From assembly GCF_004010195.1 (NCBI RefSeq), contig NC_057749.1, positions 16,496,524 to 16,560,523 of the forward strand: a DNA stretch of 64,000 nucleotides, read 5' to 3'. The translations under genes were made by a program, and so were the position numbers. Shown in pieces: positions 2,674 through 52,600 of this stretch (the first letter of the stretch is position 1; each line of letters starts with the position of its first letter). The notes below the pieces were generated by a model, which had not been told where the DNA came from, ran no database searches, and worked only from the letters and a program-made list of their open reading frames with translations. This DNA comes from Chiloscyllium plagiosum. Taxonomy: Eukaryota.

Positions 2674-2748
2674 AAACAGCGAGTGGTTGGTGCTAGTGTC
2701 TTTATTTTGGGTGTAGGTTTCGTTGGGTAGACAAAGCTTGGGATAGGA

Positions 2749-5700
2749 ATGGCTCTTTCAGTCGCCAAACGTTGAATGTTGATGTGTTGACTTTGGAAGT
2801 TTTGCAAAGGGTGAATAAGACCAAGCTGCAGGAATTAGCATACGAGCTGGAATTGGAACTGCCTGCTTCTGTGAGGAAAGAAGAGATAATTACAGCAGTA
2901 GCTCAGCATTTAAACTTGCTGAAGAAACGAATAAAATCTATGGAGGTGGTAAGAATTCGATTGCAAATGAAGCAGCTCGAGTTAAAGGCGAGAGATAAGG
3001 AAAGAGCAGCAGAAATGAAATAGTTTGAGTTACAATTAAAAGCAGAAGAGAGGGAACAAGAGAGAAGAGCAGAAGAGAAAGAGAGGGCTTTTGAACTTCA
3101 AAAACTGACACTTAAAAAGGAAAGTCAGTTTAAAAGGCTGGAGATAAAGGCTGAGGGGATGCTTAGTGAGAAAGACTGTGAGGAGGAGCAAGCCCCTGGT
3201 AGTCAGAAGCCGAGTGAGAAACTGTTTAAGTATGTTCAAGCATTGCTTAAATTTGATGAGTTGGATATGAAAGCCTTTATCATCTCATTTGAAAAGGTGG
3301 CTAAACAAATGCAGTGGCCAGTGGCAATGTGGTTTTTGTTGATCCAAACAAAACTTGTAGGTAGGACTAGTGAGGTATTCACATCACTATCAGAGGAGGT
3401 ATCTGGGGAATATGAGGAGTGAAAAAAGCCATTTTAAGAGCTTGTACCAGAAGCCTATGGACAATGTTTCAGGAATCTAAGGAGGGACCCTGGTTAAACC
3501 TATTTGAGTTTGAAAGGATCAAAACAGTAATTTTGATAGATGGATAAGAGCTTTAAAAGTCAAGCAAACCTATGATGTCCTTAGAGAGGTAATTTGTTTG
3601 GAGGAATTCAAAAATTCACTGCCTGAAATAGTGCAAACTCATATGGAAGAGCAGAGAGTTAAAACAGCAAGGTTAGCAGCTGAAGGGGCTGACGATTATG
3701 AGCTGGTCCATATAACACGGTTTGGCTTCCAGAATCAATTTTAGTCCATGAGGGATAGAAACTGGGTCAAAGAGAGATCCTCACCTGGAAAGGTGGATGT
3801 CCTCACGTTCTCCTGGATCATAAGGAGAACTTACCACAGGGTAAAAAAAGAAACCCTTGAGGGGGACAAAGAAGTTAAAAAGCTCTGGTGTTTTAATTGT
3901 AATAAAGTGGGTCACACGAAACCAGTGTTGGTGGGCTAAGAGAAAACCAGAAGTAGGAAAACTGGACAAACCTGGGAGTTTTGTTAGACTAGTAACAAAA
4001 AGCACAAGTGAAGTTAGACAACTGCCTCGGAATGTATAAGAGGATTAGAGGTTGGTTAAGGAGAAAGTGCCAGATCTGCTTAAAAATATATATATGCAAG
4101 AGTAAAGTTTATTCACATAGGTCAGGAGTAGCAGGTAAAGAGCTTATAATATTGAGGGACACAGGATCCTCTCAGTTTGTAATGCTGAAGGATGAGGAGA
4201 TATGTACTCCTGAGGGACTATTGCCAGAAAAGGTATTCGTAACAGAAATTCATGGTGAGACAAAAAACACTCAATTATGTAAAGTGAGGCTAGAGGAGAG
4301 TCCAGAGAAGAGTGGAGAATTTGTGGTAGGAGTATTTTGGACAAACTCTCAGCCCCAGGAATACAATTTGTTCTTGCAAATGATATCGCTGATTCACTGG
4401 TAGACGTGCTGCTTACTTTAGTTGAAAAGCCGGTGGAGACACAAGCCACTGAAGACATGAAGGATGTTTATCCAGGAATTTTTACTGATTATGTGATCAC
4501 AAGATCACAGAGGCACAAGTTGAAGAAGGAGAGATCAAAAGGCACAGAAAAGGAAGCCAACATAGCATTATCGGAGACTTTTTTTGATCAGATAAGTGAC
4601 ACAGAGCAGGAGTAAATAGGTAAACACGCCAATATCTTTAGCCCTATTAAGCTGATTGAATTACAGCAGAAAGATGAGAATTTAAAACAGTTATATCAAA
4701 ACACATTTACAGAGAAGGAGAATGAATGCATCCCTGTGTGTTATTACTTAACAAATGATGTCTTAATGGAGAAACGGAGACCATCACACATTCAAACAGA
4801 TGCGAAATAGGCAGAGATTCATCAAATTGTTTTGTCATTAGGGTATAGAAAGGAGGTGCTGCAAGTTGCGCATGAGCTACCACTTGGAGGTCTTTTAGGG
4901 AAGAGGAAAACACAGGCTAAAATACAAAGATGTTTTTACTGGCCTGGACTACATAAGGATGGAGTTGAATTTTGCCAGATGTATCATACGTGTCAGCTAA
5001 TTGGAAAACCACAGGCAGTAATAAACTTGCACCTTTAATACCTATTTCAGCATTTGAGGAACCTTTCACAAGAGTCTTGATTGATTGCATAGGTCCCCTA
5101 CCTCAAACAAAAAGTGGCAATAAGTATTTATTAACAATGTGTAGACTAGATTTCCAGAGGCAATTCCATGATGCAACATCACAGCTAAAAGGGTTGTAGA
5201 AGAATTACTTAATTTTTTTTACTAGATACGGACTATCGATAGAGATCCAGTCAGATCAAGGATCAAACTTCACACCCAAATTATTCAAGAAGATTATGGA
5301 TAACTTGAGAATAATACAATTCAAATCTACTGTATACCATCCAGATTTGCAGGGAGCGCTAAAGAGATGGCATCAAACACTAAAGACCATGTGAAGGGCT
5401 TATGGTCAGGACTATCTGGATGACTGGGATAAGGGAGTTCCATTCGTACTTTGTGCGATCAGAGATGCACCAAATGAATTGATCAAATTCAGTCTATTTG
5501 AATTATTTTTTGGCATGAAGTAAGAGGACCGTTAAAATTGATGAAGGAGAAGTTAATAAGTCAGAATTCAGAGACCACCCATTTGGACTATGTGTCAAAT
5601 TTTAGAGAATGATTAAATAGAGCTGGAGAGTAGGCTAGACAGCATTTAAAAATATCACAGCATACAATGAAACAGGAAGCAGATAAGAAATCACAAATTC

Positions 5701-7761
5701 GTAATTTTGCAATTGGGGATAAGGTAACAGTAACAGGTAAACCTTTAAAAGCAAGGTTTAATTGACCTTATCAAATCGAAAGGAAATTGAGTGAGGTGGA
5801 CTACTTGGTAAGGACTCCAGACAAGAAGAAATCTCACAGAGTGTGTCATGTGAATATGCTCAAAAGGTATTTTGATTGGGAAGGAAAGCAAGAGGAGAAG
5901 GTGTTAATGATTACAGCACAGAAGGAAGAACCAAGCTCAGAGGATTCTGAATTGGACATTCCTCAAATCAAATTGGACAATGTGGAAGTTGTCAAAAATT
6001 GGGATAACTTATTGAGTTACCTTCCACAAGAAAATCAAAATGACATGAAAGAATTATTACTATCACATGGGGAGATATGCGGAAATAAACTGGGAAGTAT
6101 GAACCTAATTGTGCATGACGTAGGTATAGGAGATGCTGTTCCAATTAAACAACCTCCTTATAGGCATAACCCTGTAAAGTTGGCACAGGTTCAGAAGGAG
6201 ATAGAGTGCATGCTCCAAGATGGCATAATTGAAGTGAGTTAAAGTGACAGGAGCTCACCTATAGACATAGTGCCAAAGCCAGATGGTACCCAACAGTTAT
6301 ATGTGGACTATCGCAAAGTCAACGCTGTTACAAAGATTTAAGCATATCCAATTCCATGGTTGGAGGACTGTGTTGAAAAAGTGGAATAAGCAACTTACAT
6401 TTCTAAGTTGGACTTGTGCAGAGGCTACTGGCAAGTATCTCTGTCAGAGAGCAAAGGCAATTTCAGCTTTCGTAAAGCCAAATGGACTATGTCAGTTCAA
6501 AGTCATGCCATTTGGTATGAAAAACATTCCAGCCACATTTCAGAGACTGACTAATAAGGTCATTTCTGGATTACCCAACTGTGAGGTACATATTGATGAC
6601 CTGGTGATTTTTAGTCACACATGGAAGGAACATTTACAGCATTTATCGGACTCTTCGATCAACTTCGGAAGGCAGGCTTGGTGATAAACCTAGCTACAAA
6701 TGAATTTGCCAAAGCCCAAGTCACCTTCCTGGGCCATGTTATTGGACACGGAAGAATGCCCTCATGGGATGCAAAAATGAAAGTAATTGGGGAATTCCCC
6801 GCACCGTCTACAAAAAAAAGCAGTATTACGGTTCCTGGGGTTGAGTGGATTTTACTGAAAGTTTGACTTTAGCAGTGTGGCTGCTCCACTCACCGAATTG
6901 TTAAAAAAGGGCAAAAAATTTCAGTGGACAGTGGACTGTCAAAAGACAGTCTAAAAACTATGTTAACCACTTCCCCAGTATTAACCACACCAGATTACAC
7001 AAAGCCTTTCAAAGTGGCTATCGATATGGGTGTCAGTGCTGTGCTCCTGCAGGAGGATGATGAGAGAATAGGAAGACACCTCAGGCATTTTTCCAGGAAG
7101 TTGACATTCATCAACAGAAATATTCAATGGTGGGGAAAGAGACTTTAAGCTTGGTGTTGGCATTACAGCATTTCAGTGTTTATATAATCAGCAATGCATC
7201 TGAAAAAATGAGGAAACTAGTTCGAGGGTTGGGACTGAGACAGGGTGGGGGGAGGGGAAATGAGGAAACTCCCCCCACCCTGTCTCAGTCCCAACCCTCG
7301 AACTCAGCACCACCTTCCTAACCTGCAATCTTCTTCCTGACCTCTCCGCCCCCACCCCCACTCCGACCTATCACCCTCACCTTATCACCCTCACCTTAAC
7401 CTCCTTCCAACAGTCGCATTTCCAACGCCCCACCCCCAAGTCCCTCCTCCCTACCTTTTATCTTAGCCTGCTTGGCACACCCTCCTCATTCCTGAAGAAG
7501 GGCTCATGCCCGAAACATCGATTCTCCTGTTCCTTGGATGCTGCCTGACTTGCTGCGCTTTTCCAGCAACACATTTTCAGCAATGCATCTGAGACAATCG
7601 TAAACACTGATCATAACCCATTGACATTTGTGGAAGAATTTAAGGATGAAAATGCCAGACTGTTTAGATGGAGCTTGTTGTTGCAGCCGTTCACTTTGAT
7701 AATTGTGCAGGTGACAGGTCGCGGAAACGTGATTGCTGATGCGTTATCGAGACTTGAATGA
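2749..7761 (+). pseudogene. Decayed gag-pol: SCAN-like capsid (~3230-3710), Zn knuckle (~3890), protease (~4155), integrase (~4850-5500), RT (~6140-6850), RNase H (~7000-7761)
   Basis: CFNCNKVGH; LRDTGSSQ; HELPLGG..FYWPGL..C..CQ; IDCIGPLP; SDQGSNF; VDYRKVN; KLDLCRGYWQ; MPFGMKN; HIDDLVIFS; TDHNPL; NVIADALSR. Confidence 0.9.
7204..7580 (+). mobile_element. Penelope-like pLTR fragment with 5' inversion, inserted in RNase H
   Basis: 16-bp TSD tcagcaatgcatctga (7188-7203 / 7577-7592); hairpin at ~7219-7305; hammerhead core at 7488-7524. Confidence 0.8.
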
Positions 7762-11478: not shown

Positions 11479-14069
11479 ATGATAGCCCTCACCTCTGGGT
11501 TGTGTCTGACCTTGTTTTTTTGTGGTCACCATTGCAACATTCACAGAGACACTGGAGAGGCTGGAACCACCAGGGATTGTCCCTGTTTAGTGTATAGTAA
11601 TGAAGCAGGTCTGTCAACAACAGGGCCACAACACAGAGACTGTACACAAAGATCACAGCCATTGATCCGTAATTACTGGGGATGAGGGGAGAAAAGACAA
11701 GACACATATCAGCGATTAGTGATTAACAGACAGAGCACCTGTAATAGTGAGTTAGGGAATGTTACCAACACATTTTCAAACACACAGTCAATCAACAATG
11801 AAGCAATCTTTCCTATTAGAGCATCTATTTAGTGCAATGTTGGAGATCTTATGTTGCATTGGTAGCCTTCCTATCTCTGAGCCAGAAACTTCAGGTTCAA
11901 GTCCCATTCCAAGACTTGGTGGCCAAGAATGTTGTGTTTATGACACAGACAAGGTTGAGGATCAACTTGCAAGTCCTTACAATTCACACTGCAGTTTTGG
12001 GAGGTAAAAGTGGGAGAGATTCTTGGTCAGCTGTGTGACGGAAAAATCATTGCAGCCTCCACCAGCACCATCCAGAGTGCAACATGTGAAGGTGTATGTT
12101 GCTACAAAGACTCAGGTCTCTTGGGGCAGCCAGTTGGCTGGTACCAGTCAGTTCAGTGTCAACAGCACAGGGCTCATTCCCAGTTCCAGCCTGGGCTGGA
12201 TATTGGATCTGCCCATGATGGAGGTCATGGCACTCAGCATTGGACCTGCCTTTGTGCAGAGAACTGAAGAAAATCCTGCAATTGCTACTCTTACCCCTGG
12301 AAGGTAGAGGGGCTTGCTCTGGTCTGTGCTTTATCCAGTGACCTCAGCTATGGCAATAAAGGCAAGATATTTGAAAGTCTATGCTCCAGGATTACAGATA
12401 GATCCTTCCCTCCTCACACTTCCATGCCCAACACACATCTCAAGGTTTACAGGGCAACATACAGAAATGGGGACATTGACTGAATTCCACCATTTGCTGT
12501 CTCCGGCTGCCATTCTGAGGGTCACTAAACCCGAAGCATTAACTCTAATTTCTATCCACAGATGTTGTCAGACCCACTGAGCTTTCCCAGCAATCTCTGT
12601 TTTTGTGTCAGCAATTGACTGTCCCCACCAAGACAATGATCATCCTCTAGCCCACTATTGTTACACCTCACTTGCCAATCATTAAATTTAAGAAAACCCA
12701 TTTTCCTTTCAACTGGCTCTGTGGGAGGTCCATTGTCTCCACAATGAGGATACCCCATGTCAAAGCGATCACTAGTTCAACAGCTGTCCTGCTAACCTGC
12801 CCTATTCCCCCCTCACCTGCAGAAACACTGGTCCCATTTTCATACGTACACAGATCTCCTGGTCTGAGCTGACGTGTTCATTTTCATTGTACTCTGAAAT
12901 TCAGTCTCATTGCAGCAATATTTCAAGGTTTGGTTGCTTTGACGGCAACAGTGGGTTTGTCCCTGATCTTCATTAAGCCGCGGACAGTAGAATCCGGAAT
13001 GGTACCTTTTTGCGGTGTCCAGGTACGGCTCACAGATCCTGTACTTAGAAGCAGAAACTGGAGAACAAGAGGTTATTGTCGAGTCATCATGTTATGGCAC
13101 CAACAGAGGCACAGTGTAACTGGGATACAGGACAATAACACAACATACTGAGGACTGTGAATATTTTCAGAAAACAGGGCCACCAGATGGCAGATATAGT
13201 TTGATAATCCGTAAATAGTCAGGAATAAAACTTTATTTTGTTCTTTTCCTGCTTCTTTGAAAACCTCCCTTCCTTAACACGTTGCCCCAGTTTGTGCACA
13301 GTCCTACTCTAGTATTTTACCCAAGCGACTCTTTTCAATGCAATAATATAATCAGCAAGTAGCAACAAATTTCTGACTTGTCAAGGAAATCAGCAATGGC
13401 CCTATTTTGTCCTGACTCGTTACCAAACTAACAGTATCAACAAATGGACAGAGGTGAGCAGGACAACAAGTGCCACACATGGCTCAATGGTCATGCTCTT
13501 ACTTTGAGTCAGGAGGTTAGAGTCTGGATTAACACTCCAAGTGCACTATGAAAGAGTCATCTGTAAGGTGGAGACATTAACTGAAACCCTGATTACATTC
13601 TCAGTTAAACAGTAAAAGATCTCATGAGGCTATCTAAACAAAATTAAAGAAGTTCTGACCAGGATCCTGATGCTTAACTGTGTATTAATTATGTTTAATT
13701 AAATGCAATTGGTGGTCATTGACTGGTGATTTACCTAGATCCATGTTGACACGGACCGAAACTGTATTTGTTGTGTTAGAAGCTGCATGCTTATAATATG
13801 GAACTCTGTAAATATAGATAAAACTGTGTAAAGATTGGTGCAGATCTATCTGCCTTTCTGGATTAAAACATAGGCCTGTACCTCCCCTTAATGAACTTTA
13901 CTAAAACAGATGATATGGTTGAGAGTTTGTTCTGTGGAAATTAGCTGCTGCACTTCCTCCATTGTCACAGTAACTACACTTCAAAAAGTTCTTATTGTCT
14001 GTACAGCACATTGGAACCTGAGGTTGCTGAAGAGTCTATACACATGCAATTTCTTTCTTTACATTAGGG

Positions 14070-19474: not shown

Positions 19475-20320
19475 GTCATAGAGTCATAGAGATGTACAGC
19501 ATGGAAACAGACCCTTTGGTCCAACCCATCCATGCCGACCAGATATCCCAACCCAATCTAATCCCACCTGCCAGCACCCGGCCCATATCCCTCCAAACCC
19601 TTCCTATTCATATACCCATCCAAATGCCTCTTAAATGTTGCNNNNNNNNNNNNNNNNNNNNNNNNNNNNNNNNNNNNNNNNNNNNNNNNNNNNNNNNNNN
19701 NNNNNNNNNNNNNNNNNNNNNNNNNNNNNNNNNNNNNNNNNNNNNNNNNNNNNNNNNNNNNNNNNNNNNNNNNNNNNNNNNNNNNNNNNNNNNNNNNNNN
19801 NNNNNNNNNNNNNNNNNNNNNNNNNNNNNNNNNNNNNNNNNNNNNNNNNNNNNNNNNNNNNNNNNNNNNNNNNNNNNNNNNNNNNNNNNNNNNNNNNNNN
19901 NNNNNNNNNNNNNNNNNNNNNNNNNNNNNNNNNNNNNNNNNNNNNNNNNNNNNNNNNNNNNNNNNNNNNNNNNNNNNNNNNNNNNNNNNNNNNNNNNNNN
20001 NNNNNNNNNNNNNNNNNNNNNNNNNNNNNNNNNNNNNNNNNNNNNNNNNNNNNNNNNNNNNNNNNNNNNNNNNNNNNNNNNNNNNNNNNNNNNNNNNNNN
20101 NNNNNNNNNNNNNNNNNNNNNNNNNNNNNNNNNNNNNNNNNNNNNNNNNNNNNCCCAGCACCGATCCTTGTGGCACTCCACTGGTCATAGGCCTCCAGTC
20201 TGGAAAACAATCCTCCACCACCACCCTCTGTCTTCTACCTTTGAGCCAGTTCTGTATCCAAATGGCTAGTTCTCCCTGTATTCCATGAGATCTAACCTTG
20301 CTAATCAGTCTCCCATGGGT
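19475..20320 (-). mobile_element. CR1-clade LINE spanning the assembly gap
   Basis: WIQNWLKGRRQRVVV...SGVPQGSVL; tail repeat gtcataga. Confidence 0.85.
19642..20153. other. Assembly gap (512 N)
   Basis: Run of N. Confidence 0.99.
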
Positions 20321-21143: not shown

Positions 21144-21579
21144 CTACTTCTTATGTACTCACTTTCAAAAGGGAATGGATAAGGACTTGAATGGAAGCAA
21201 AGCTACAAAGTCACAACAGAATAGAACATCTTTATTGTCAGTTGTATTCCATTGTAGAAATACAGTGAAAAGCCTTTACAAAGTCTGCCTCTGATTTTTA
21301 GTTACAAGTATGTAGTACAAATCTTGGATACAAAAGTGAAATAAAAAGTAGTTGCATTACTTTACAGAGTTTAAAAAGTAAGTTAGAAATAAGACATTGT
21401 TAAATGATTGACATTAGAGTCAGGTAAAAAATTTCAAATAAACATTGCGTTTTAGCAGCTCAGCACAGGGCCTCCACATGTTTTCTGACCAACCACACCA
21501 GACCTCAGTCCAACAGCCGTCCCCCCTCTGTGATCCAAGCCTCCGGTCAGCTCTGTACTAGCGCTCAGCTGCTCCAAGG

Positions 21580-22086: not shown

Positions 22087-24749
22087 ATTTGATTTCAGAA
22101 GTGGTTTCTTTTTCTAGAAGACTTTCATCATCATGGATCTTTCCTCCACACATCAGACACATATCTCCCTCTTTTGTCACTGCTGTTCTCACTGGGCAGA
22201 TTCTCCAGATGTTTACCCAAACGGTAATCATTGATAGACGATGCAAGACAGTGAGGGTCAGGATATTCCATCTTGGCAGTACAGCAAAGGCCAACCCTAT
22301 TAAAGGAACAGAAAAGATACACTACTGCAGGCCGCTCAGCCCATTGCTCCCGTCGTGACTATTTGCTACACACGCATACTCTTTCCTTGTGCCTTTGTAA
22401 CTTTGCTTCCCTTCAAGTCCTTATCAAATTCCCTTTTGAAAGCAAGTACATAATAGGAAAAGTAGCCGGACTACTCCTCAAGCTTGCTCCACCATCCAAT
22501 GGTCATGGCTGATCGTTTGCATGAGCACATTCTTGTGCCATCTCATAAGTTCTCGACTTTTTTAGTACCCAAAAAGCTCATCAATTTTGGTTTTGAAAAC
22601 ACTCAGTGACGGAGTACTCATTGCCCTCTAGACTAAATGGTTCAAAAAATTCAGTCTCGTGGACAGATTGCTCGACTCGGTCTTAAATAGCCAATCCCTC
22701 ATTCTTACAAAATGTTCCATCCTTCTGGAAGCCCCGGATAGGGAAGCAGTTACTGGTGAACCTGCTTCTGCTGCTATTTCAGGCAATGTTGTCCAGATTG
22801 TAATAACTTGGGTGTAAAACTATTTTCTCCAAATCTATCGAAGCCTCCACTCTGAACAAATGCAGTGTTAAAAATAATTCATGCTACCTCTGTATCACTT
22901 GCCAATGACTGTAAACCTCTAACACCTGGTTACCACAGCTTTCAGTACCTTATTGCCCTCAGCAAACACACGCTCCCACATAGGAACTAGACTAGGAAAC
23001 CTAAATGATTTGTTCCCTCCTAATAATCCAATCAACCCTATAGGGCCCTGATGTCAGGTAACTCAGTAGATGCTAAAAATAGGGAATTTCCTGGGTCAGT
23101 AATGGTGCACACAATGGAGAAAATTGTAAAGAAATATGCATACAGCAAACTTCATAAATTTTTGGACATGGAACAATACCAGCATTCCTTCATCATCACT
23201 GGATTAAAATGCTGGAGCATTGAGATCATACCTGCACTGTACAGACTGCAGGAATTCACATAGAGAGACTCATCTCAATCTTGTCAAGAGGAAGCAAGTA
23301 TGGGTAATAGATTCCAGCTTTGACAGAGATACCCTAACCTATGAATGAATCCAAAACAAAATTCTCATGGAGGTGGCTGTTTATCAACCTGCATTCCTAA
23401 ATTTCCCCATTCAACAAAAGCAATGGAGATACAGTGGATTTTTTCACCCAACGATGCTTTGTGTGCATGTCTGTGTGTGGGTGTGTAGCAACACTTGGGA
23501 TTTCAACATGTGCAAAGTAAGTTTCTTCACTTTTTAAAAGAGTTGGATAAGTCTCTCAGCTAATAACAGTGTGAACAGAGACTGAAACTAATGGGTGGAA
23601 GATGCAGCTAGGCTATCAGAAGAATCATCCCAAGGGTAAATAAGCATCATTGAATATGGGAAGAGGGAAATGCAAAGCCATTCAGGAGCAATAAAACAAA
23701 GTGCTGGAGGAAATATTCAATAGGTCAGGCATCAATGGACAGGAGCAATGGTGTTTTCAGAGAATAGATTCCAAATAAGATTTACAAAAAGCTAAAATCT
23801 ATTCCTATTGGCATTTGCTCGTTTGCTGTAAAACACCACCAGTTATATGGTGTAACTATTTATGGGTAGAGGTGCAAAACAGTCAAGTGCTGCTCAAAAT
23901 GAGCAGTACTGTCCCAACATAAATGCTGGAATTTATTGAGTTAAGGGCTCGATCAGGGCCACTAATCAGGGATATCATCATCCTGGGTTCTGCAGCTCAT
24001 TGATATGCAGTGAACATGGATACAAGTCAGAGAGATGGATGAAAATTTTAGCCAATATATCAGCACCGACGCAGGGCTGTCAGATATAGTACACAATGCT
24101 GACGTTTTGTTTTTAAGTTTGCATGGGGATATGTTCCAACGTTGAGTTGATTAAACTACTGTCCTTAATGCCCAATAAATCACGAGGGATTAAGAACAAG
24201 AAGCTGGCAATCATCTCGACGCTGAGAAATATTTCAGGCAGGATCCATAAATATTAATCTGGTACTACACTGGTTCTTGATTTGCTTACTGCAAACATTG
24301 AAAATGGATATTAATTTTATAGATGACAATTACAAAAGCATAAAGCAGTCAGCAAAAATCAGTTTATGCCTGAATATTCACCAATAAATGAAATATTAGC
24401 AAACTAGATTTATGCTGTCTTCAATTTTTCACCTATTCATTCTTTTGTGAGATGTGGGTTTCACTGGCAAGGCCAGCATTCATTTCCCATTCTTAAGCGT
24501 CCCCTGAACTGAGTGGGTTTCTAGGCCATTTCAGAGGACAGTTAAGAGTCAAACACGTCACTGCAAGACTGTAGTCACATGTAGAACAGACTTGGCAAAG
24601 ATAGCAGATTTCCTTCACCAAGGACACCATTGAACGGGATAGGCTTTTATGATGATCAATGAAAATTGTCACACTTTCAATTCCAGATTTTTAACAAATT
24701 CATCGAGCACCTGATAGGCGTACGCGTGAGAGAGGTTTGATGAACCCAT

Positions 24750-31600: not shown

Positions 31601-34600
31601 ACATTTCATACTGCAGCTATGACTCACAGCACAGAGGTGGTCAAAGTTAATTTACAGATTACACTTTGACCCGGCCTCCTCTCTAAAAGGTTACCTCATG
31701 GGTGCTGGTCCTGCAAAGGATGGAAGCTGAGAGTGCCTGCAAGATGGAGTGCAGCCTTGACAGAAAGCCAATGTGCTGAAGAGGAGCAATGGGAATGGAG
31801 AAAACGATGAACATGAAGGAATGGGCAAGTATAACCATCTATTTATAACCCACAGACATGGAATAATTACACATGTACACTAGCATAAAAATACTACAGG
31901 TACCACACATTGCAAGCCCACACACATTTCTCAGCTTACAATCTGCATGGACACTATACCACAGATACGGCACTACACCAACACTAAGCAGGAGTGTACA
32001 CTGCAGCACACAGACACACACTTGCCTCACAAATACACCCCACCCCACCAGATGCTCATCAGCCACTCACCCTACAGATGAGATCATTTATATGCTCACA
32101 CTTGAATACAAACAGCACTGGTATCACATATGCACATACATGCAACTCATCACAAGACTCTCATGTTCCCACTCCCTGCAAACTTCCTTGCCAGTCCTGC
32201 TGACCACAAACCAGGCTACCCACTCCACAGGTTAAGAAAGTAACAAGCACAGGGTCGAAGCATCCGCAGACACACTGGGTACCATCCCAATCTCTACAGG
32301 TGCATACACACATAGCGCATCATAAATATACACACACCACTGCATGTCTCCCCACCAGCCAATACATCGACACTGTGCACTGCACAACTCAGCCTCTCGT
32401 GCGCATGCACACATACCCACATCAACATAAAAACGACCTTCCTTATCCACCCTACCCCTCATTCACCAATGTCCACAGTTAGTCCTGTTGATTCTTGCTG
32501 TGGAAGTTTAATGGGTATCTCAGCCCTCTGGAATCTTGCAAGCATCAGTGCTCAGTAAGGGCAGGCTATCTGGTTGTAAGCAGGCATACAGTTAAACCCA
32601 ATTTTGTCCTCACCTGAAATGCAAACTTTCCCATGGGAGTCACTGGAAGGGAAGTGCTGGCTATATCATTCCTGAAGAAGGGCCTGTGCCCGAAACGTCG
32701 AATCTCCTGTTCCCTGGATGCTGCCTGACCTGCTGTGCTGTTCCAGCAATAAAGTTTCAACTATATTATTTCACCCCTTTACAATCTGGACCAATGATGC
32801 CCTAAGCTGAGATCTGCTAATTTATCCCAGAACTTGGTTTCGACCCAAGATCTCTGGGCTGCAGTGGTGAAACAGCAAATCCAATGGTGCCTTCAACTGG
32901 ACTGCCACTGCAAATAAAACCACTCCTCTAGTATGTAAATCATAGACTAAGATCACATACAAGCAGGGGTTAAAAACAATTTAGTACTTTGTTTGATGCT
33001 GATCTCTTCTCCAGCAAGATACGGAATCTGTTGCAGGTCACTTTGTTGTCTTTTAGTCCTTGTCCCAAGCCCCGGTTGTCATCCTGCATGAGACGACGAT
33101 CCAGAATGACCTCCAATTCACCTGGGAATGACAGGACAAGAGATCCATTCAGCATTAAGGAGGAGTGAATGAAGGCGGTGTTTCTTTCTCAACTATAGTT
33201 TCTAGCCTCAGGGCTTGTCATCCATGTTCTCCATAGGACTCCTTACTTTTAACCCCAACAGCAGTGTCACTCTCACTAAAATCCCCCCACCCTGATGGTT
33301 ATTATCCACAAACTGATTCCTTGGGTCTCGACGAGTACAGGAGATGGAGAATTTGGGGGTTTCCACAGGTCCAATCCTGCTGTTACTCAATATCCAACCA
33401 GACACACTCTCACAACCAAGTCACTGGCAAGCAGGAAGCCTGTAACATTCTACAGAGAATTCTTTTTGTTACATCTTTGCTTTGCTCAGCCATGGCTGAA
33501 ATCAGATGGAAACTGCAGCCTGTGGTCCAGAGGAGGTGGTTGCTGGCAAGAAGTGCTGAGTCAGTAGAAACTAAAACTGATCACCTCTCCCCAAAATGTT
33601 CCAGTCTGTTTCACCTTGAGCCCCTCCCAAGACAGAAATAACTTTCCAAAATAAAACATGTCAGTTAAAGTCTAAATTATAAATTTGTAGAATCAAGGTC
33701 TAATTAGAAATAACCCCAAACCCCATGATTAGAAGAAATGAGGAGAATAGAATGCCCTGTTAACTTCCTCTGACATTCACTGGGCTGCTATTTCCATTCA
33801 CAGAGTAATGCTGGATTTGCGAGGATTGCATTTATCATGTTGCTGTGGGGCTGGAGAACAACAATTACTCTAAGAGGCACTGCCAGCAAATCAATTAGGA
33901 TACAACCAGTTTGCTCACCATTGTGAATACTCGACACACCCAGAGACTGTGCAGCATGTAGTGTCAGGCGGAATCGATCATCCTGAATGTAGGCCATGGT
34001 TGACATCGGGTAGAAGTTGGCCTGAAGGGGCAACTTCTGAAAATATTTTCTCGCTTGAATCTACAGGAAGCAATAAAAAAGCTTAAGAACAAGTTGAGAT
34101 CGATCCACAGTGCTGCAGAAAGATGACCTTGTTTTAAGTATAAGCACATTTTCCAAGACCAAACACAAGCAAATGAAATGGGAACAGATGGCCATTTGGC
34201 CCCCGAACCTGATCTGCCATTTAGTAAGATCTGGCTGATCTGTTTGTTTTGAATTCCACATTTCCATCAGCACAGATAACCTCAGCTTCCCTGATTAACA
34301 AGAATTTACTCACTTCTGCCTTCAGAGTCAAGAGAAATTAGGAACTTAAGGCTTATGCCTGAAACGTCGATTTCCCTGTTCTTCGGATGCTGCCTAACCT
34401 GCTGTGCTTTTCCAGCACCAGACTCTCAACTCTGATCTCCAGTGCCTGCAGTCTTCACTTTCTCCCACCCCTGCCTTCACGATAATTAATGACCCATCCT
34501 CCTTCACCTGGACGCAGAGAGTTTCAAATTGGCTCAAAGATTCACCTCAGCTGTCCTAAAAGGACTAGCTCCAGTTTTAAAACAGTGCCATCCCCCACCC

Positions 34601-37600
34601 TGATACTGGACTCAAACTAGAGGAAACACCCTTTCCATTTTCACTTTGTCAAGATCATTCAGAATCATATACACTTCGACCAAGTCACCCTTAAACACTT
34701 CTAAGCTCAAGTTGAAACAAACTCAATCTGTCCAACCTTTCCTCATAAGATAACACACTTACTCCAGATATTAACCTAGCAAGTTTCCCTCCAACCACCT
34801 CCATTTACATCTTCCCATGAATAAGGATGCCAAAACTTCAGCCAGGTGTGATTTCACTGATGCATGGTATAAATCCAAAAATGCTTAGCTTCAGTTATGT
34901 TTAATCCCTCTCATTGTGAAGGGCAGCATTCTATTAACATTCTTGATTACCATTTGTATTAAATGTATTAACATTTTGTCACTCATGCACTAGAACATGA
35001 AGATCTTTCTGATCCTCAGGCCAACTTCTACCCGATGTCAACCATGGCCTACATTCAGGATGATCGATTCCGCCTGACACTACATGCTGCACAGTCTCTG
35101 GGTGCTCACTTAAAATTTTCTACAAATGTGAACTTCATATTTTCCCCCATTATAGAACATCTGCCAGAATGGTGCCCAATGGCTCAACATATCTAGGTGT
35201 GCCTGCAAACTATTCTTCATTGTAGTTTATTTGCCTACCTATCTTGACGTTGTACATGCACTTAGTTCCGTGCTTTTGTTTCACTTATACCATATATTAT
35301 ATCTTAATACTCCCTAAAAACTGATGCATTAAAGAAATGCTCCAAATAGCATTACCAATCCCGTTCCACCCCCCCGCTTCAAAACACAAATTTTAACTTC
35401 AGAAATCAGAAGACCTTTCAATGCAAAACACCACCAGGGCCCTGTCAGGTAACATGGTGGATGTGTGGATATTATAGTGGGTGAAGATACTGGGTGAGGT
35501 GCAAATGGGAGATAGAGGTTGGGTGTCATTGATACACCGTGGCCACAAAATGTAGATTTAGGTCAGTGTATTCAGGACATTGTGAAGAGATGTTTTAATC
35601 ACATTGTTTGTTTATGTTCAGTAGTGATTATCACTCCCAATCAGCAAGAATTGCATGGTTTACAACCCTCTCCAAGACTTGATATTTCTGATTTACCAAT
35701 ATGATCTGGTCCAGGTGTACAATGGATAACATTTACTGTGCATTATTAGTGAAAAAGTTGTGTATCTGGAAGACAAAAACTCTAATTTTTGATTTTTAGT
35801 TCTGACTTCAGCTCCCAACTTCCCCCACCCCATTCCCCAAACCCTCATCTCTGCCATTATTTTGACCCGAATTTATCCTGCTCCACCCCACCATTTCCAA
35901 TCCTTTCTAATATGCAGCCAGAGATGACTCAACAGATTAACAGCATGATCAAAGACTGATGTGCACAGGACAAAGTCAATTGTTATACCAATGTTTAAAT
36001 ATTCTGTCATACATTTTAAACAATTGTGTGCTTTCCTTTTTCATGTCCACGTGAACTAATTATGCTGCATTTATATACTCCCTAAAATTACTGGGATGTA
36101 ATTACTGGGCAACAAGTTGAAAACCACCAATTTCCATTGTAAATGTGAACAAAAGAAATTGGCAATGGAATAATCGAAGACCAAAACTGAACAAATTTAA
36201 TAAAAGGCTTGTTATGGCCAAGAGACTTTACCAATAATTTCCAACACTACTTCTCCCATGTACCACACCTAAGCAATGGATATACCCATGCTGTGGAGGC
36301 AGTAAGGCTCAGTTTAGCGAGATTGAGATTGCCTCTCATTCCAAGAGTCAATTATTTTCTGAAGGAGACAGTCAGGGTTGTCTTCCCTGTCCAAAGAATC
36401 TGGAACATGGAGGCACAGCTTCAGGGTAAGGTGCCAAACATTTAGGGCTGAGGTGAAATTCATTCACTCTGAAATGAGTGACTTGGAACTCTCCACCCCA
36501 ACAGTTGCTGATATAACAAAATTTTTCAATGTTCTCAGTCTCAGCCCTGATCTCTCAGAATCAAAAAAGGAATGAGGGGCAGGCGGGAAAGTGGAATCAA
36601 ATCAGTTATTAATCAGATGTCATCAATGGTAGAGCAGGCTCAAGTGGCCACATGATCTACCCTTGCTGCTATTTCTTACACCCTTATCAATCTTGACATA
36701 AGAGATCCACTACAAAATAATGACTACACTTGGATATATGTAACAAGTTACCACATATCAATGCCTCAATGATTTGAGTGAACACGTAAGCCCCAAATAG
36801 CAGCAAGACGAGCAAATGGTTTGTGTGCTTTTAGTATTATTGGTTAATAATGTCCACGAAAGCAGAAGACTGTCCAATAATCTAACAGGCAGGCTGATCC
36901 ACAATTTAATGCATCCTCGAAGAGGTCATTGCACAGGAGACTTTAAATATTACCCTCTATCCCTTCCTACACTGAACTTCCAAGGAGGGGCGAGAATGTG
37001 TAACCATTTGTATAGTAATTTTACACCAAGTTACCTGAAACCCATTCAAATCTGTGTAGAATGTGTCTCCACTTTCAATATTGGTGGACAGCCTCATTGC
37101 CAGCTCTCGGTTTATCTGGTCATGAATGTCAACAACAACGGAAACATCCAACGAAAGCCCCTCAACTCCTGCCAGCACAAGAACACACGAGTAGATTATC
37201 ACTGCACCACATTTAACACTTTGCGAACAATTCACTGGAATCACTTATTTTTGTTATATTCTGTTCTAATGCCAGTGGATATCAGTTAACTTGGCACTGA
37301 CAGTGCAGGACTGTTGGACTGGATGACTCAGTACCAGAATGGATCCACATTTATTCACCAAGTGAGAGCAATGAAAGTTTTAACCAGCAAAGCCCTTTTC
37401 CAGAGCAGACCACTGGAATCACATTTCCACCCAAATTCACTTCCTACCGTCAGTATTTCATTAGATATATACAGCACTAGAAGAGGATCACCATAGTGAA
37501 TTTAACTGTCTGCCATGATAACACACAGCAATTGTTACTTTTGTACATTAGCTTTCATATGGGACCTTTAACATTAATTCTTTACAATTCCCACCTCCCA

Positions 37601-46600: not shown

Positions 46601-49600
46601 CCTCTGAGAAAAAGAACAGGAAATGACATCACTACCCCAAAGAAAGGCAAACATATAAAATAGAAAGCAGGAATCATCAGCAGTGCTTTGTCCAGAGGCT
46701 CACTGAAGATGTTACCTAGTATAGTGACGAAATGTCGAAAACGAACCTTCCAGCTCAGTGAGCAAATCAATATATACACACAGTCTCAGAAAACCTAGCA
46801 TTTATACAAAATTCTATCTCAGCTCATAAATGTCATGTGATCCCAAGGGTTACAATCACAGAGGAGAAAGTGAGGACTGCAGATGCTAGAGATCAGAGCC
46901 GAAAATGTGTTGCTGGAAAAGCGCAGCAGGTCAGGCAGCATCCAAGGAGCAGGAGAATCAACGTTTCGGGCATAAGCCCTTCTTCAGGAATCCCCATGCC
47001 TGACCTGCTGCGCTTTTCCAGCAACACATTTTCAGTTACAATTACAGATAAAGGAAAGGCCATTTAAGACTGAGGAGGAGAGATTTCTTCAGCCAGATAG
47101 CGGTGAGCCTGTGGAATTCTCAGCCACAGAGTGGTTGAGGCCACTGAATGCTCTCAAGGAGAGAGATAGAGTTCTTCGGGCTAAAGGGGTCAAAGAGGAC
47201 AAGGATGGAGGGCCAGGAACAGAATACCGATTTAGATAACTAGCCACGATCTCACAGAATGGCAGAGCAGGCTCAAAGGACTGAATGCTCCTATTCCTGC
47301 TCCTACATCTCTCCAGGCTTTCCATTTTAGCATGAGAAGCAGGAACATTAGCTTTGTTTACTTGGCGGCATTAAGCTGCTAAAACTGAAGTTCAGTGTTC
47401 TTCATAAATCACAATAACTTTGGTATTGTTTGGCACAGAAACATTCATATGAAAATTAAAAGTAAAAGATTTGTTTTAAATTTGGAGGTCCTCAACCTTC
47501 AGCATTTGCAAACCTGTCTTGCTCACTCCATACTAGACAAGCAGTGACCTAGTTTATATGGATTTCTTGGTTAAGTTAAAGTTATACTAAAAGATAATTA
47601 TTTGGCAAACATAAAATGGAAGTTTATTTCATTTCACAGAGGTGCACAGTGACACGTACCGGATTCCATAGTCAACAACCACCACTTCTTTTGAGGTGCC
47701 AGTAATGGCATCATGGTGCTGGAACAAGCCTATGTTCCGGCGAGCTTCTGTTAGTGAGCTATAATCAGAAACTGGGTATTTACTGTCTGCACCAAAGCGG
47801 CGAGCGTGATTTAAGGCCAAGCTGTAGAGGATCTCAGCTGCTCTGGAATAAAATTAAAGGCTTTTTATTTAAGGCTCACGAATTATTTAATAAAAATGCC
47901 AGTGCACATTTATTGACACAGAATTTTATAGAAGGAAGACATTCAGCTCAATGTAATTCAGCCAGTTCAGAGCTTAATCCCAATCCCTTATACTCGCCCC
48001 ATTTAGCTTAAACATCACCCTTTGTAATACATTTATCCATTTTCTTATTTGAAAGTTACTCTGCTTCCACCATTCTAAAAGTCCTCTGCTTTTTTTTAAA
48101 AAAGCATCTCCTTTTGTTCTATAGAAAGGAGCCCAAGTTTCCATACCTTCTTCTGAACTAAAATCTCCCACCGATAAAGCTTCCCTGCATCCTTTCAATG
48201 AGCTGATGTAGTTCCTAAAGTTCAGAGCCCAAATTCCTATTGTTTGTTTAGCAAAACCTATCTTATTCTCCGTATTTCACTAACACTATCTATCACTCCA
48301 GGTCCACCCATCTCTGTCCTCTTAGATTCTTGTCTCTCCCTCCAAGACTCAATTATTAATTAGTAATATCTTTTAACACTCTTTTTACTCTTTTCTACCA
48401 CATTAGAAAAAAGAACTTTAAATACAACTGCTTACAAACATAGCCCCTTACCTGAGGTGTGATTCCAGGACTCTGTCTAGATTCTTATAAAAGGGTCGGG
48501 AGGTAAAATATCCACTCCAATAATGGTCCTCACGGTCAGCATAGGTGAAGAAGTCTCCACTGAGGATAGGGTAGGATGGAGGCTTGCTACCTGGGCTAAC
48601 ACCGTATTTTTTATAGACAGCATCAAAGTACTCAGATAGCGTTCCAAACTGCACCTGGTAAATAAATGGACATTCAGAACAAAGCAAAGACAGACACCTA
48701 CATATTGGAGACACAGTTTCTCTAAAAATTCCCAACCCCCAAGACATTTCCATCTATCAACTTAGGTGCATTTTATCACAGATACACTTTCAACACCTTT
48801 CCCAGCAAACTTCATTTGCATGAGAATCTGACATTCAAATTTGGAAGACATCGCAGCTAAGCCAAATTTGCTCAAGCTTCCAGGTATGCCCAGAAACCTC
48901 AGAACCTCTCCTTGCCTAAGCTGCTACAATCAACTGTTTCCTCTCGGTTGCCCTGCCTGGCGAGCTAGATAGCTCAGTAGATGGCTCATCAAAGCAGAGA
49001 TCTGCCTGCTCTGTACAACTGGTAAACTGCTGGAATCCAGACAGCTAGTCAAAGTCTGTGAGAAGATTTGTAGCTTGGGTGCTCGTGGTTGTGGTTCTGT
49101 TCACCGAGCTGGGAATTTGTGTTGCAGACGTTTCGTCCCCTGTCTAGGTGACATCCTCAGTGCTTGGGAGCCTCCTGTGAAGCGCTTCTGTGATCTTTCC
49201 TCCAGCATTTGTAGTGGTTTGAATCTGCCGCTTCCGGTTGTCAGTTCCAGTGGTCGGTATATTGGGTCCAGGTCGATGTGCTTATTGATTGAATCTATGG
49301 ATGAGTGCCATACCTCTAGGAATTCCCACTTATTATCTCCCACTTATTAGGGCAAATTTGCTTTTGGATCAATACCGGAAAAAGTCCAAGTTGTTCTCTA
49401 TTCGGCTTGTCCTATTATAGTAGTGTTGTCCAGTCGAATTCATGTTGCTTGTCATCTGCGTGTGGCTACTAAGGATATCTGGTCGTGTCGTTTCGTGGCT
49501 AGTTGGTGTTCAGCTATCCTTAGTAGCCACACACGCAGATGACAAGCAACATGAATTCGACTGGGACAACACTACTATTATAGGACAAGCCAAACAGAGA

Positions 49601-52600
49601 ACAGCCAGGGAATTCCTAGAGGCATGGCACTCATCCACAGATTCAATCAATAAACACATCAACCTGGACCCAATATACCGAGCACTGCAACGGACAGCTG
49701 GAACTGACAACCGGAAGCGACAGATTCAAACCACTACAAATGCCGGAGGAAAGATCACAGAAGCGCTTCACAGGAGGCTCCCAAGCACTGGAGGATGTCA
49801 CCTAGACAGGGGACGAAACGTCTGCAACACAAATTCCTAGCTCAGCGAACAGATCCAGACAGCTATATTTCTCCCTTGACAGAGACACTTACTTGCACAT
49901 GAAGCTCAGGGTGAGAGTTCATGTAGTCAAAAAGTTTTGCATAATTCTGGAATTGCTGGTCCCACTCCAGAGCATTGTCATAACGAAAGTCATCTCCAAC
50001 TGGAATCAGGACCACTTTGCTCTTGAACAACTTGGACTTTTTCCGGTATTGATCCAAAAGCAAATTTGCCCTAATAAGTGGGAGATAAGAATCTGCACTG
50101 AGAATGTAACAAACACATGTGGAAGGAAGACAAGAACAAGCGTTAGCATGCTTTCTTATCAGTAATAAGAAAATGATACTGTCAATTCACTGAACATTTC
50201 CTCTTAGGAAAGTAAAATTACTTCCAGAAAGCAGCACCATGGGATATGAAAATGAGGAGTAAGCAACCTCGTTAAACAAATCAAAATGAGATGTTATAAA
50301 TACATCTGCACAGACTTCTTTCAACCTTTCCCATTATAAATTGCCCAGTTCATTGTTACTACATATATAAATGTCACATGGTAAATATTTCCCACTAGTG
50401 GAGGTGCTATAGTGTGACCAGCATCAACAGCAAGTCATCAAAGTTGGACAAATTTAGACAGATTATTTCCAAGGTGACAGTGTATGTGGAAATTTATAAT
50501 GGAAGCAGATATAGATAAAATCCAGGACATTAAAACAGCAACTAAATAATACTTGCACAACTTGTTCTAATTATGTATGCCCTCTAACAAATTTATTTTC
50601 ACTGAAATGCAGAGAAGTTGCAATACAGAATTTGCCATTTAACTCAACCAGCCATGTCAACCTTTACCCTTCTCGTGGGAACATTGCTATAATCATATTT
50701 CAATACATTCTTACCACGATGTATTTTCTTTCATCCACCTAACCAATACCATCTTTAAGACTGATTTTTGCCTGAATCACCAACTGAATTTCACAGGTTT
50801 GTAACTCAAGAAACTTCAAGCGCATCTTCCTATTTCCAGTGCTCCCTTATCCCAGAACCCTCAATCACTTATAATAATCTGCTATCTATCCGACCCCACT
50901 TTCTTTTAAAAGCACTTCAATCATGTTGCCCCATAATCTGCTATGTTCAGGCCATTTTTTTTTTAATTCCATTTTTTTTTATATACTATGTTTAAACCTT
51001 CAACTGCCTATATATTAAAAAAAAGGAGTCGCGACAGCATGCCTGGAGATGTTTGAACTGAACAACTAGTGCAGTCATGGCGAGATTGCTTAACACCCAG
51101 TACATCAGCCAACCAAAAAGAGAAAATACAAGACCACAATGAGTAAATGTTACCTGGGGCAGAAAGATTCCAGATCTGATGTTTCTACGTGGAATTAGCT
51201 GATTTGAACTAGATAGCAGAATCCAGCTCATTAGTAATCTGTTACCTTTTGTTTTTACCTGTCTCTGGGCCCCATCTCCACATAATCTATTCACTGGCAC
51301 AACCCCCCTATCATCAGTATAAAAATGATCTTTTTCAGATATTCAGTTCTGACGAAGGGTCACTTAAAACATCTTCTCTGTAGATGCTACCATACCTGCT
51401 GAATTTTTTCATCACTTTTTGTAGCGGAATTCTACAACTGGTATAAAAAAAACTTGGTGGATTTAAATCAAGAAGAATAATCAATAACCAAGTTGCAATT
51501 CTACTTAAGGTTTTTAAATCAATGGTGGCAAATAGGAAAACTGCACAAGAAAGACACCCTAAGCCAACTATTCTAGCACAACGATCAAGAATTCAGGCAG
51601 TCCATCACAACATCCAACTGGCTCTTCAATTATTGCAGGGAATTTCACTTCCAATATCATCCTTTCCTGCCTCCAACATACCTGTTTCACAAGTTGATCG
51701 CATGAAGAACTTCCGACAACAGTAGGGTATGAACCAACAGCATGGAAATTCAACAGAAGATGTGGAGATTTTCAAACAAAATAAATTTTGAACAAAAAAG
51801 CAGTGCTCTCGTGATGACTGCACAAAACTGACCAAACAACCATTCAGTCCAGGATCTGGATTAGTGGTGCTGGAAGAGCACAGCAATTCAGGCAGCATCC
51901 GAGGACAGGCAAAATCGACGTTTCGGGCAAAAGCCCTTCATCAGGAATAAAGGCAGAGAGCCTGAAGCATGGAGAGATAAGCTAGAGGAGGGGGGGGGTG
52001 GGGAGAGAGTAGCATAGAGTACAATAGGTCAGTGGTTCTTGTAGAGAGAGGAGGAAAACTTCTTCAAGGCAGGCATCCTTGCAAGAGGATTCGCAGTAGG
52101 GTTAAAATCAACGAGGTAAAAACAATGACTGCAGATGCTGGAAACCAGATTCTGGATCAGTGGTGCTGGAAGAGCACAGCAATTCAGGCAGCATCCGAGG
52201 ACAGGCAAAATCGACGTTTCGGGCAAAAGCCCTCCATCAGGAATAAAGGCAGAGAGCCTGAAACATGGAGAGATAAGCTAGAGGAGGGGGGGGGGGGGGA
52301 GAGAGTAGCATAGATTTTACAGTTCCTGCGGTGGCAGGGGAAAGTGCCAGGATGGGAGGGTGGGTCGTAGGGGGGCGTGGACCTGTGCCAGGATGGGAGG
52401 GTGGGTCGTAGGGGGGCGTGGACCTGAACCATCAAACTCCAACCAATTATAGCCTCGTGAAAATGGATAGACTGGTGTTCATAGCTACAAGTCAAGTAAT
52501 GGCGAAAATACACATACCAGTTAATGCTGACTAGTTGGGATGAAGATTAAGCATTTCCCTCAAAAGATAAAATTAAAGCTTTATCCTATGAGTAACAAGA

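Follow-up and report, generated by a model that had tools for sequence, protein, structure and literature searches.

Repair-mediated duplications were described by Pace et al. (2009; PMC2671141) as insertions of at least 50 bp that interrupt a transposon, and 824 of the 1,136 donors reported there lie within 5 kb. According to Table 1 of that work, microhomology plus a deletion, with or without filler, is found in 19 of 39 proximal repair-mediated duplications and represents the commonest breakpoint classes. Coding-exon sequence occurs in only 8 of the 824 human donors; partial exon/intron donors are included, and ACSBG2 provides an inverted exon copy located in its own intron. Complex multi-switch insertions with microhomology are also reported from the human germline (Osia et al. 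2021, PMC8421209). The insertions made by polymerase theta are 3–30 bp long and copied from a template within about 50 bp, distal templates accounting for less than 0.1% of polymerase-theta repair (Carvajal-Garcia et al. 2020, PMC7165422).

An inverted exon 8 acceptor copy within a Penelope-like foldback

The window, that is, the whole stretch of DNA that we analysed, extends over 64,000 nt and includes a MAN2A2-like Golgi alpha-mannosidase gene on the minus strand, MAN2A2 being the name that we take to apply. Exon 8 of this gene (49893..50070, minus strand) is 178 nt long and bounded by AG/GT, while exons 1–7, upstream of it, were assigned by reading frame. The GDDF encoded by exon 8 aligns with residues 339–342 of fly mannosidase II chain 1qwn, within which D341 presumably plays a catalytic role. 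In the assembly sequence, positions 49333..49396 (plus strand) are the exact reverse complement of 50025..50088 (minus strand), with 64 of 64 bases identical and a copy-to-donor distance of 628 nt; a chance match is excluded. Since the edge of exon 8 lies at 50070, the copy contains the final 18 nt of intron 7, with the pyrimidine tract and the AG, and the initial 46 nt of exon 8, and in the pre-mRNA it is complementary to the acceptor of exon 8. A previous sequence-only reading had claimed both the exact inverted copy and this division into intron and exon, and our results agree; its proposal that the template was DNA or unspliced RNA is likewise supported by a donor that crosses the exon–intron border. 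The search of the 3.56-Gb assembly with this stretch gave at least two matches, and among the matches listed only the stretch itself and exon 8 appear.

After repeat filtering, two perfect non-repeat inverted pairs remain in the 64-kb window and no others: this 64-nt exon copy and an 89-nt one in the same gene (35016..35104, plus strand), the latter located in the intron on the upstream side of the exon that supplied it. The donor of the latter (33937..34025, minus strand) is situated within a coding exon and gives a weak Glyco_hydro_38C match (E 0.0014). The pairs 21151–21216/22387–22453 (90%) and 14102–14150/14547–14595 resemble old repeat remnants and were left uncounted.

The 64-nt copy resides in the left arm of a Penelope-like foldback element. 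This arm (minus strand) is split into an outer part (49092..49327), with 4 substitutions over 232 aligned nt relative to the family majority, and an inner part (49392..49481), which is followed by a 29-nt spacer (49482..49510) and an uninterrupted right arm (49511..49857, plus strand; 7 differences over 347 columns from the family majority) carrying the C-terminal end of the element reading frame. The family shows this arrangement of inverted 5'-truncated copies in 21 inverted pairs in 30 loci, and the spacer here is among the shortest of them. A 13-nt direct repeat flanks the foldback (left copy 49035..49047, right copy 49853..49865, both plus strand) and is a likely target-site duplication. 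The family-type tail is seen, by eye, on the left side only, a one-sided tail as in Penelope-like elements. A separate 13-nt deletion site between two CAG words is present in the left arm (49248..49250, plus strand). The encoded C-terminal end showed no match in Pfam or PDB; Atlas look-alikes at 0.94 have GIY-YIG in 18–27% of members, a lead only, and the reading of a GIY-YIG motif in this frame is our assumption. Rfam matches to the inner hairpin were sub-threshold and were discarded.

As demonstrated by comparison of the two arms, 64 non-element bases (49328..49391, plus strand) stand where the left arm would have the 4 nt TGGC, which makes it longer by 60 nt net, and three ordered joints of 3–5 nt fit within 73 nt. 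A short templated piece (49324..49335, plus strand), which matches donor positions 50072–50083 and goes no further, starts with a 4-nt element microhomology, TCCC (49324–49327), and ends in a 3-nt overlap, TTA (49333–49335), with the long piece; the back-slip on the donor between the two pieces is 14 nt. The right joint comprises the 5 nt TGTTC (49392..49396, plus strand), common to the donor end and the inner arm of the element. The insert has no poly(A/T) tail. The uninterrupted state of the insertion site is observed in the other arm of the same foldback and, among 50 arms at 29 other loci, in all 39 that extend across the site. These data, established at the assembly level together with the copy itself, bear out the 4-nt replacement, the left and right microhomologies and the short re-primed piece proposed from the sequence alone, and add the TTA joint between the pieces. 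Five matches with +14 to +44 nt at the exact insertion site were considered as a hot spot and rejected, being listed as tandem, rearranged or N-gap types.

Related captures in the family and their expected frequency

A genome-wide family scan of about 1.1 Mb (1.09 Mb) of Penelope-like repeat sequence revealed 38 matches lengthened by insertions (+40 to +101 nt), compared with 2,605 and 5,769 of normal length. Flanks were retrieved for seven of eight foreign inserts, two of the seven flank sets having large N gaps; a local donor was identified for two of the seven, both inverted, and no donor within about 2 kb was found for the other five. One of the two (L075/L080) is a perfect (100%) 86-nt inverted copy, with 5-nt microhomology, filler and deletion at its joints, and its donor, 632 nt away, has no Pfam match and is apparently non-coding. 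The other (L071/L082) is an 82-nt inverted copy with 95% identity to a donor about 0.8 kb away in a repeat, and this divergence indicates that such copies persist and age. Three further inserts are inverted copies from inside the element, and one 73-nt foreign insert is present in the two arms at one locus and again at another locus. Larger inserts of +102 to +132 nt (seven matches, six retrieved) lie outside the rate estimate below and consist of three nested terminal modules, one LINE-like tail, one tandem and one element-internal inverted copy. As the family scan indicates, young Penelope-like arms are usable as traps with a known empty state.

The background control comprised 30 myosin-centred loci and 29 repeat loci, in total 193 kb, which is too small for an exon-enrichment test. 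The exons of the 30 myosin-centred loci (L033–L062, some overlapping) yielded no inverted exon copy. Perfect inverted control pairs of 53 nt (gap 75) and 41 nt (gap 92) were set aside as hairpin-like or element-internal.

In the family scan, 2 to 5 inverted captures of local sequence occur per 1.09 Mb, a rate at which two or more captures in the 34-kb gene have P = 0.002–0.011 (upper bounds 0.02–0.05). Requiring both donors to touch exons adds a further factor of about 0.01–0.015, by hand arithmetic with a coding share of about 10% and a protein length that we assumed. This low joint probability is absorbed only by selection among many windows, and we take the exon donors to reflect chance plus ascertainment. 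Two exon donors in one gene are somewhat unlikely; the view that two exon copies here are unexpected holds insofar as they are improbable at the measured rate, but the class recurs elsewhere with donors that look non-exonic. If the insert is as old as the arms, the probability that it shows no change is 0.10–0.27; dating by perfect identity is therefore not significant and does not place the insert after the element.

Pre-mRNA folding and alternative origins

An antisense copy within the same pre-mRNA might mask the 3' splice site of exon 8, as had been suggested. In the predicted fold of the full intron, the foldback reaches −717 kcal/mol against −454 kcal/mol for the insert–exon duplex, an equilibrium advantage of about 260 kcal/mol, so that the insert would be looped out. 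Masking is thus disfavoured at equilibrium, whereas it is favoured co-transcriptionally in a nascent-length window of about 55 nt: the 64-bp duplex, worth −113 kcal/mol, is the predicted structure of minimum energy as long as the nascent 3' end is within 49333–49280, which could allow kinetic trapping. The copy could then be a retained regulatory element that pairs with the exon 8 acceptor and, by skipping or by use of an upstream AG, tunes the enzyme level. Alternative AGs are available 22 and 27 nt upstream of the acceptor, a paralogue with 79% identity over exon 8 could buffer the loss, and an inverted intragenic duplication of 13.1 kb in MANBA illustrates that such structures can cause skipping (PMC6549551). 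We nevertheless regard a regulatory role as highly improbable, as the outer element stem (−453 kcal/mol) is predicted to win from 49260 onward, the acceptor is transcribed about 680 nt before the copy, skipping of the 178-nt exon would shift the frame, and the copy is unique and undiverged, lies inside a young repeat and bears no sign of conservation. The fold of the element itself probably keeps the insert from blocking splicing, and the effect on splicing is taken as small. If the insert allele did lower exon 8 inclusion, it would offer a natural way to test co-transcriptional trapping when a thermodynamically stronger fold competes.

The origin of the copy might also be technical, a gap in the near-palindromic element having been filled from nearby reads during assembly or library preparation. 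The assembly is fragmented (101,977 contigs), N runs occur near other family copies, such inverted structures often trouble short-read assemblies (PMC8557442), the identity is 100%, and this copy and L075/L080 lie at near-equal donor distances (628 and 632 nt) on the scale of a library insert. An artefact is unlikely, however, because three ordered joints of 3–5 nt within 73 nt require a molecule that already contains them, positions 48000–51500 are free of N, and one event of this type has diverged (95%). Overlaps of 3–5 nt are far below usual assembly word sizes. Part of 47600–50400 is included in 20 of 24 listed runs, none of them on record as RNA, with a share of at most 0.79, a measure too coarse for the approximately 65 junction words. 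More improbable still is a template jump by the element's enzyme during foldback insertion, onto the flanking plus-strand DNA and back. The age of the insert is inseparable from that of the arms, the family carries and spreads captured sequence, as the 73-nt insert illustrates, and, among 17, the GGAATTCC site or its vicinity harbours two nested insertions and one foreign insert, although this clustering is weak (P about 0.15, hand calculation). Against such a jump, the insert is found in one arm only, no second copy appears among the matches listed, and resuming in register with 4 nt lost is a repair pattern. Moreover, the element sense is plus in the right arm, so the left-arm cDNA is the plus strand, on which the insert reads as pre-mRNA sense instead of complementary to the host RNA. 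The pre-mRNA therefore cannot have templated first-strand synthesis, which weakens the suggested reverse-transcriptase template switching.

A transcription-coupled capture would have used unspliced pre-mRNA or the displaced sense strand as template, copied from a minus-strand end by a repair polymerase or by the element reverse transcriptase at a break, and would bias donors to exons and splice sites. Both perfect copies in the gene have exon donors, improbable at the measured rate, and the insert's minus strand, being antisense to the pre-mRNA, can be cDNA. RNA-templated break repair has been reported (PMC12065846), and Penelope-like elements keep introns and have mobilized host genes that contain introns (PMC8557442). 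RNA templating is formally possible for every inverted copy, so that orientation does not discriminate, and we hold this origin to be unlikely: the two local donors found regardless of genes look non-exonic, the 30 exon-centred loci lack any exon copy, the human donor counts given in PMC2671141 bear no sign of an exon excess, and exon donors are kept unchanged by selection and are the ones readers notice. The broader proposition, that local inverted captures come preferentially from exons or splice-site edges of a transcribed gene, templated by the unspliced transcript or displaced sense strand and possibly made by the Penelope enzyme at foldback breaks, also seems to us improbable. If true, it would mean that a germline process places antisense exon copies in the pre-mRNA of the donor gene itself, where they could trap splice sites during transcription, and that the repeat family now and then disseminates what has been captured. 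Were donors exon-biased throughout the genome, this would testify, in a natural germline setting, to transcript-coupled templating during break repair.

A probable repair or replication scar and its relation to known classes

We consider the insert to be probably a germline repair-mediated duplication or microhomology-mediated template switch, formed in place during or after the foldback insertion. We infer that the left arm broke or that a fork stalled there, perhaps owing to the short-spacer foldback or to the element's own endonuclease, which would have left a free 3' end; the predicted folding energy of the foldback DNA, −367 kcal/mol, is only suggestive as a sign of fork stalling or breakage. 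In the simplest path, a minus-strand end would pair over 5 nt with a part of the same strand in exon 8, at a distance of about 630 nt; the presumed polymerase would copy 59 nt across the exon–intron border, slip back by 14 nt on the donor and copy a few more bases, before the other end was rejoined through 4 nt at the cost of 4 element nucleotides. Starting from the left end, the mirror-image order would fit equally well.

The attribution to polymerase theta, called typical in the sequence-only reading, is weakened by 64 nt copied from 628 nt away, against 3–30 bp within about 50 bp (PMC7165422). The two have in common repeated microhomology annealing, aborted synthesis and inverse repeats by intramolecular priming, and only the 14-nt slip is on the scale of that enzyme. 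With size and distance outside this range, a repair-mediated duplication (PMC2671141) or an MMBIR-type switch fits better. The insert resembles MMBIR/FoSTeS-type MMB-TI (PMC8421209) in its inverted template, several switches and germline occurrence, with microhomology at every switch (4, 3 and 5 nt) and a switch back onto the original template; the yeast signature of MMB-TI has templates within 100 bp, compared with 628 nt here. The locus has the structure of Penelope-like insertions, an inverted pair with a tail on one side (PMC8557442), a likeness that concerns the element and not the insert, and the locus holds only the 3' end of the element. MANBA (PMC6549551) likewise has a microhomology-joined inverted copy inside the same gene, with pre-mRNA pairing possible, but the copy there is 13.1 kb, whereas the one here is 64 nt and set in a stronger competing foldback.

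The closest counterpart is the class of Pace et al. (PMC2671141). As in that class, an insertion of at least 50 bp interrupts a transposon: 64 nt replace 4 nt, with consensus positions within 30 bp and 39 of 39 other spanning arms uninterrupted. The donor is single-copy among the matches listed and lies 628 nt away, between the class limits of 50 bp and 5 kb, and the joints show microhomology, deletion and filler without a poly(A/T) tail. Our literature searches listed no report of this mutational process in a shark-type lineage. The insert is a well-resolved example of an already known mutational process, differing from the class of PMC2671141 in that it occurs in a shark-type genome, outside the species surveyed there, its acceptor is a foldback element, its size falls at the lower end of the range, and its filler is a resolved back-slip.

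A 64-base inverted copy of an exon boundary

The insert at 49333-49396 is an exact reverse complement of 50025-50088 over 64 bases, as sequence comparison within the window confirms for the sequence-only reading, and the copied stretch takes in 18 intronic nt plus the first 46 nt of exon 8. Across the 3.56-Gb assembly, this stretch matches two places, the insert and exon 8 themselves, in a search whose counts are lower bounds. The donor exon (50070-49893, minus strand, 178 nt) belongs to a mannosidase gene, which we take to be MAN2A2, traced on the minus strand as reading frames with AG/GT ends; seven exons defined in this way lie upstream of exon 8. In protein searches, exon 8 hits Golgi mannosidase II of the fly (E 5e-14) and, weakly, Glyco_hydro_38N, and a paralogous exon with 79% identity is located on a separate contig. 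Downstream of the gene, cysteine-rich reading frames (~12550-13090, minus) suggest a putative Shisa-like gene. Decayed frames resembling an LTR retrotransposon, gag/pol-like by eye, occupy ~2700-7760 (plus).

Along the plus strand, the element runs through TCCC, common with the donor, into a short piece copied from 50072-50083, then through TTA into the long piece, and through TGTTC back into the element. Specifically, TTA is common to the end of the short piece and the start of the long piece, with a 14-nt backward step on the donor, while TGTTC is common to the long piece and the element at the right joint; 64 foreign bases replace TGGC of the element. The joints thus read bear out the claimed microhomologies, four-nucleotide replacement and short re-primed piece. 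For an inverted copy to arise, the template must have the polarity opposite to the one that ordinary fill-in uses. In the simplest path, a minus-strand 3' end would fold back on its own strand, 628 nt away, copy the exon 8 donor, slip once and rejoin the element; the mirror-image order of copying would be equally compatible with the joints. The template switching by reverse transcriptase suggested earlier is excluded in the form of first-strand synthesis on pre-mRNA, because left-arm cDNA would be the plus strand, where the insert reads in pre-mRNA sense.

The interrupted foldback and its repeat family

The foldback consists of a left arm (49092-49481) containing the insert and a right arm (49511-49857), separated by a 29-nt spacer, and a 13-nt direct repeat stands on either side (49035-49047 and 49853-49865). 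Inverted pairs are the normal form of this family (21 in 30 loci, one locus counted twice), and PMC8557442 describes them for Penelope-like elements. The family is large: one search yielded 2,291 candidates, and another found 5,769 places that match both anchors exactly. Its protein frame has no match in Pfam or PDB, and GIY-YIG occurs in 18-27% of the members of its Atlas look-alikes; at the protein level, proof of the Penelope-like label is weak.

Compared with the majority sequence of the family, the two arms carry differences at 7/318 and 7/342 positions. The insertion point is uninterrupted in all 39 other arms spanning it (50 arms examined); among 53 arm matches, the insert is the sole insertion, alongside four deletions (11-13 nt each), including one in the left arm itself. 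At 49248-49250 this arm bears, as another scar, a 13-nt deletion bounded by two CAG words, and most indels of the foldback sit in this arm, breaking the palindrome. Elsewhere in the window, an assembly gap (a run of ~512 N) lies at 19642-20153.

Captures elsewhere and the rival explanations

The repeat family, whose empty state is known, served as a trap for similar insertions. Interval 1 (172 nt) gave 17 longer matches (+40 to +101 nt) versus 2,605 of normal length, all 17 sorted by eye into seven nested terminal modules, six tandem or element-internal direct inserts, one N gap and three foreign inserts. Interval 2 (112 nt) gave 21 versus 5,769; 19 were sorted, an N gap and a previously encountered event being set aside, into 11 direct element-like, three inverted from within the element and five foreign. 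Donors were sought for seven of the eight foreign inserts in flanks of ~2 kb, some limited by N gaps; two had a local donor, both inverted, and five had none in that range. One of the two (L080:2504-2589) is an 86-nt perfect inverted copy inside a family arm, with its donor 632 nt away (L080:1786-1871) and joints showing 5-nt microhomology, short filler and a deletion. That donor, which comes after a repeat tail, lacks any Pfam match; the locus is a twin of the 64-nt insert with an apparently non-exonic donor. The other (L071/L082) is an 82-nt inverted copy, 95% identical, of a repeat ~0.8 kb away. In 1.09 Mb of the family there are 2 to 5 local inverted captures, a rate that would give some thousands across the genome.

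A 73-nt foreign insert occupies both arms of one foldback (L094/L103, 1900-2136 and 2882-3118) and recurs on another contig (L083); the genome has three copies of it, and no donor was found. The captured sequence was apparently carried along and spread by an active element. Nested terminal modules recur at one AT-rich arm site (five cases: L073, L076, L106, L109, L111) and near the GGAATTCC site adjoining the break of the 64-nt insert (two cases: L065, L067), possibly reflecting endonuclease preference. An older inverted pair in the window (21151-21216 / 22387-22453; 67 nt, 90%, 1,170 nt apart), without a match elsewhere in the sample of loci, appears to consist of two remnants from a repeat tail. 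Near a myosin exon, an intron holds a hairpin-like element (L044:718-891) whose 41-nt arms are perfect, with additional pairing inside.

That the insert is an assembly artefact is improbable. Penelope-like foldbacks are known to trouble short-read assemblies, and the donor distances of the insert and its twin are alike (628 and 632 nt); against this stand three short joints in order, the lack of N in its vicinity and an aged event of the same type. The insert, known here from the assembly, looks like a real variant. The two exon copies in one gene, called unexpected before, are improbable at the scan rate: the probability of at least two captures in 34 kb is 0.002-0.011 (upper bounds 0.02-0.05), and both donors touching exons adds, by hand arithmetic, a further factor of ~0.01-0.015. 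This residual improbability favours a special mechanism directed at exons, which we nevertheless consider improbable, as a reader singled this gene out among many windows, exonic donors remain unchanged, 30 myosin-centred loci (a small sample) show no exon copy, and PMC2671141 reports coding-exon sequence in only 8/824 human donors. The twin's apparently non-exonic donor also weakens the claim.

Predicted splicing effect and known insertion classes

In computed folds, the insert-exon duplex reaches -113 kcal/mol, against -453 for the outer arms, and the two are unable to nest. When the whole sequence is folded, the insert is looped out (-717 versus -454 when the duplex is forced), which goes against the suggested masking of the 3' splice site; masking would be favoured for nascent ends between 49333 and 49280, where alone the duplex is the minimum-energy form, the foldback being ahead by 49260. 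Kinetic trapping of the exon 8 acceptor would be possible in this model. Skipping of exon 8 would shift the frame and lose the GDDF segment. Alternative AGs at 50093-50099 (minus), which precede the acceptor by 22 and 27 nt, lie outside the duplex, and use of that at -27 would keep the frame open and add nine codons. Exon skipping in MANBA from a much larger inverted duplication is described in PMC6549551.

The literature searched contained no shark report of such capture events, which is not proof of absence. The pattern had been called typical of polymerase-theta insertions; the insert falls outside their size and distance definition in PMC7165422, but has the anneal-extend-slip logic in common with them. 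It agrees with repair-mediated duplication in the features compared with PMC2671141, and resembles complex germline MMB-TI events (PMC8421209). The 64-nt insert looks like a real member of an already known mutational class.
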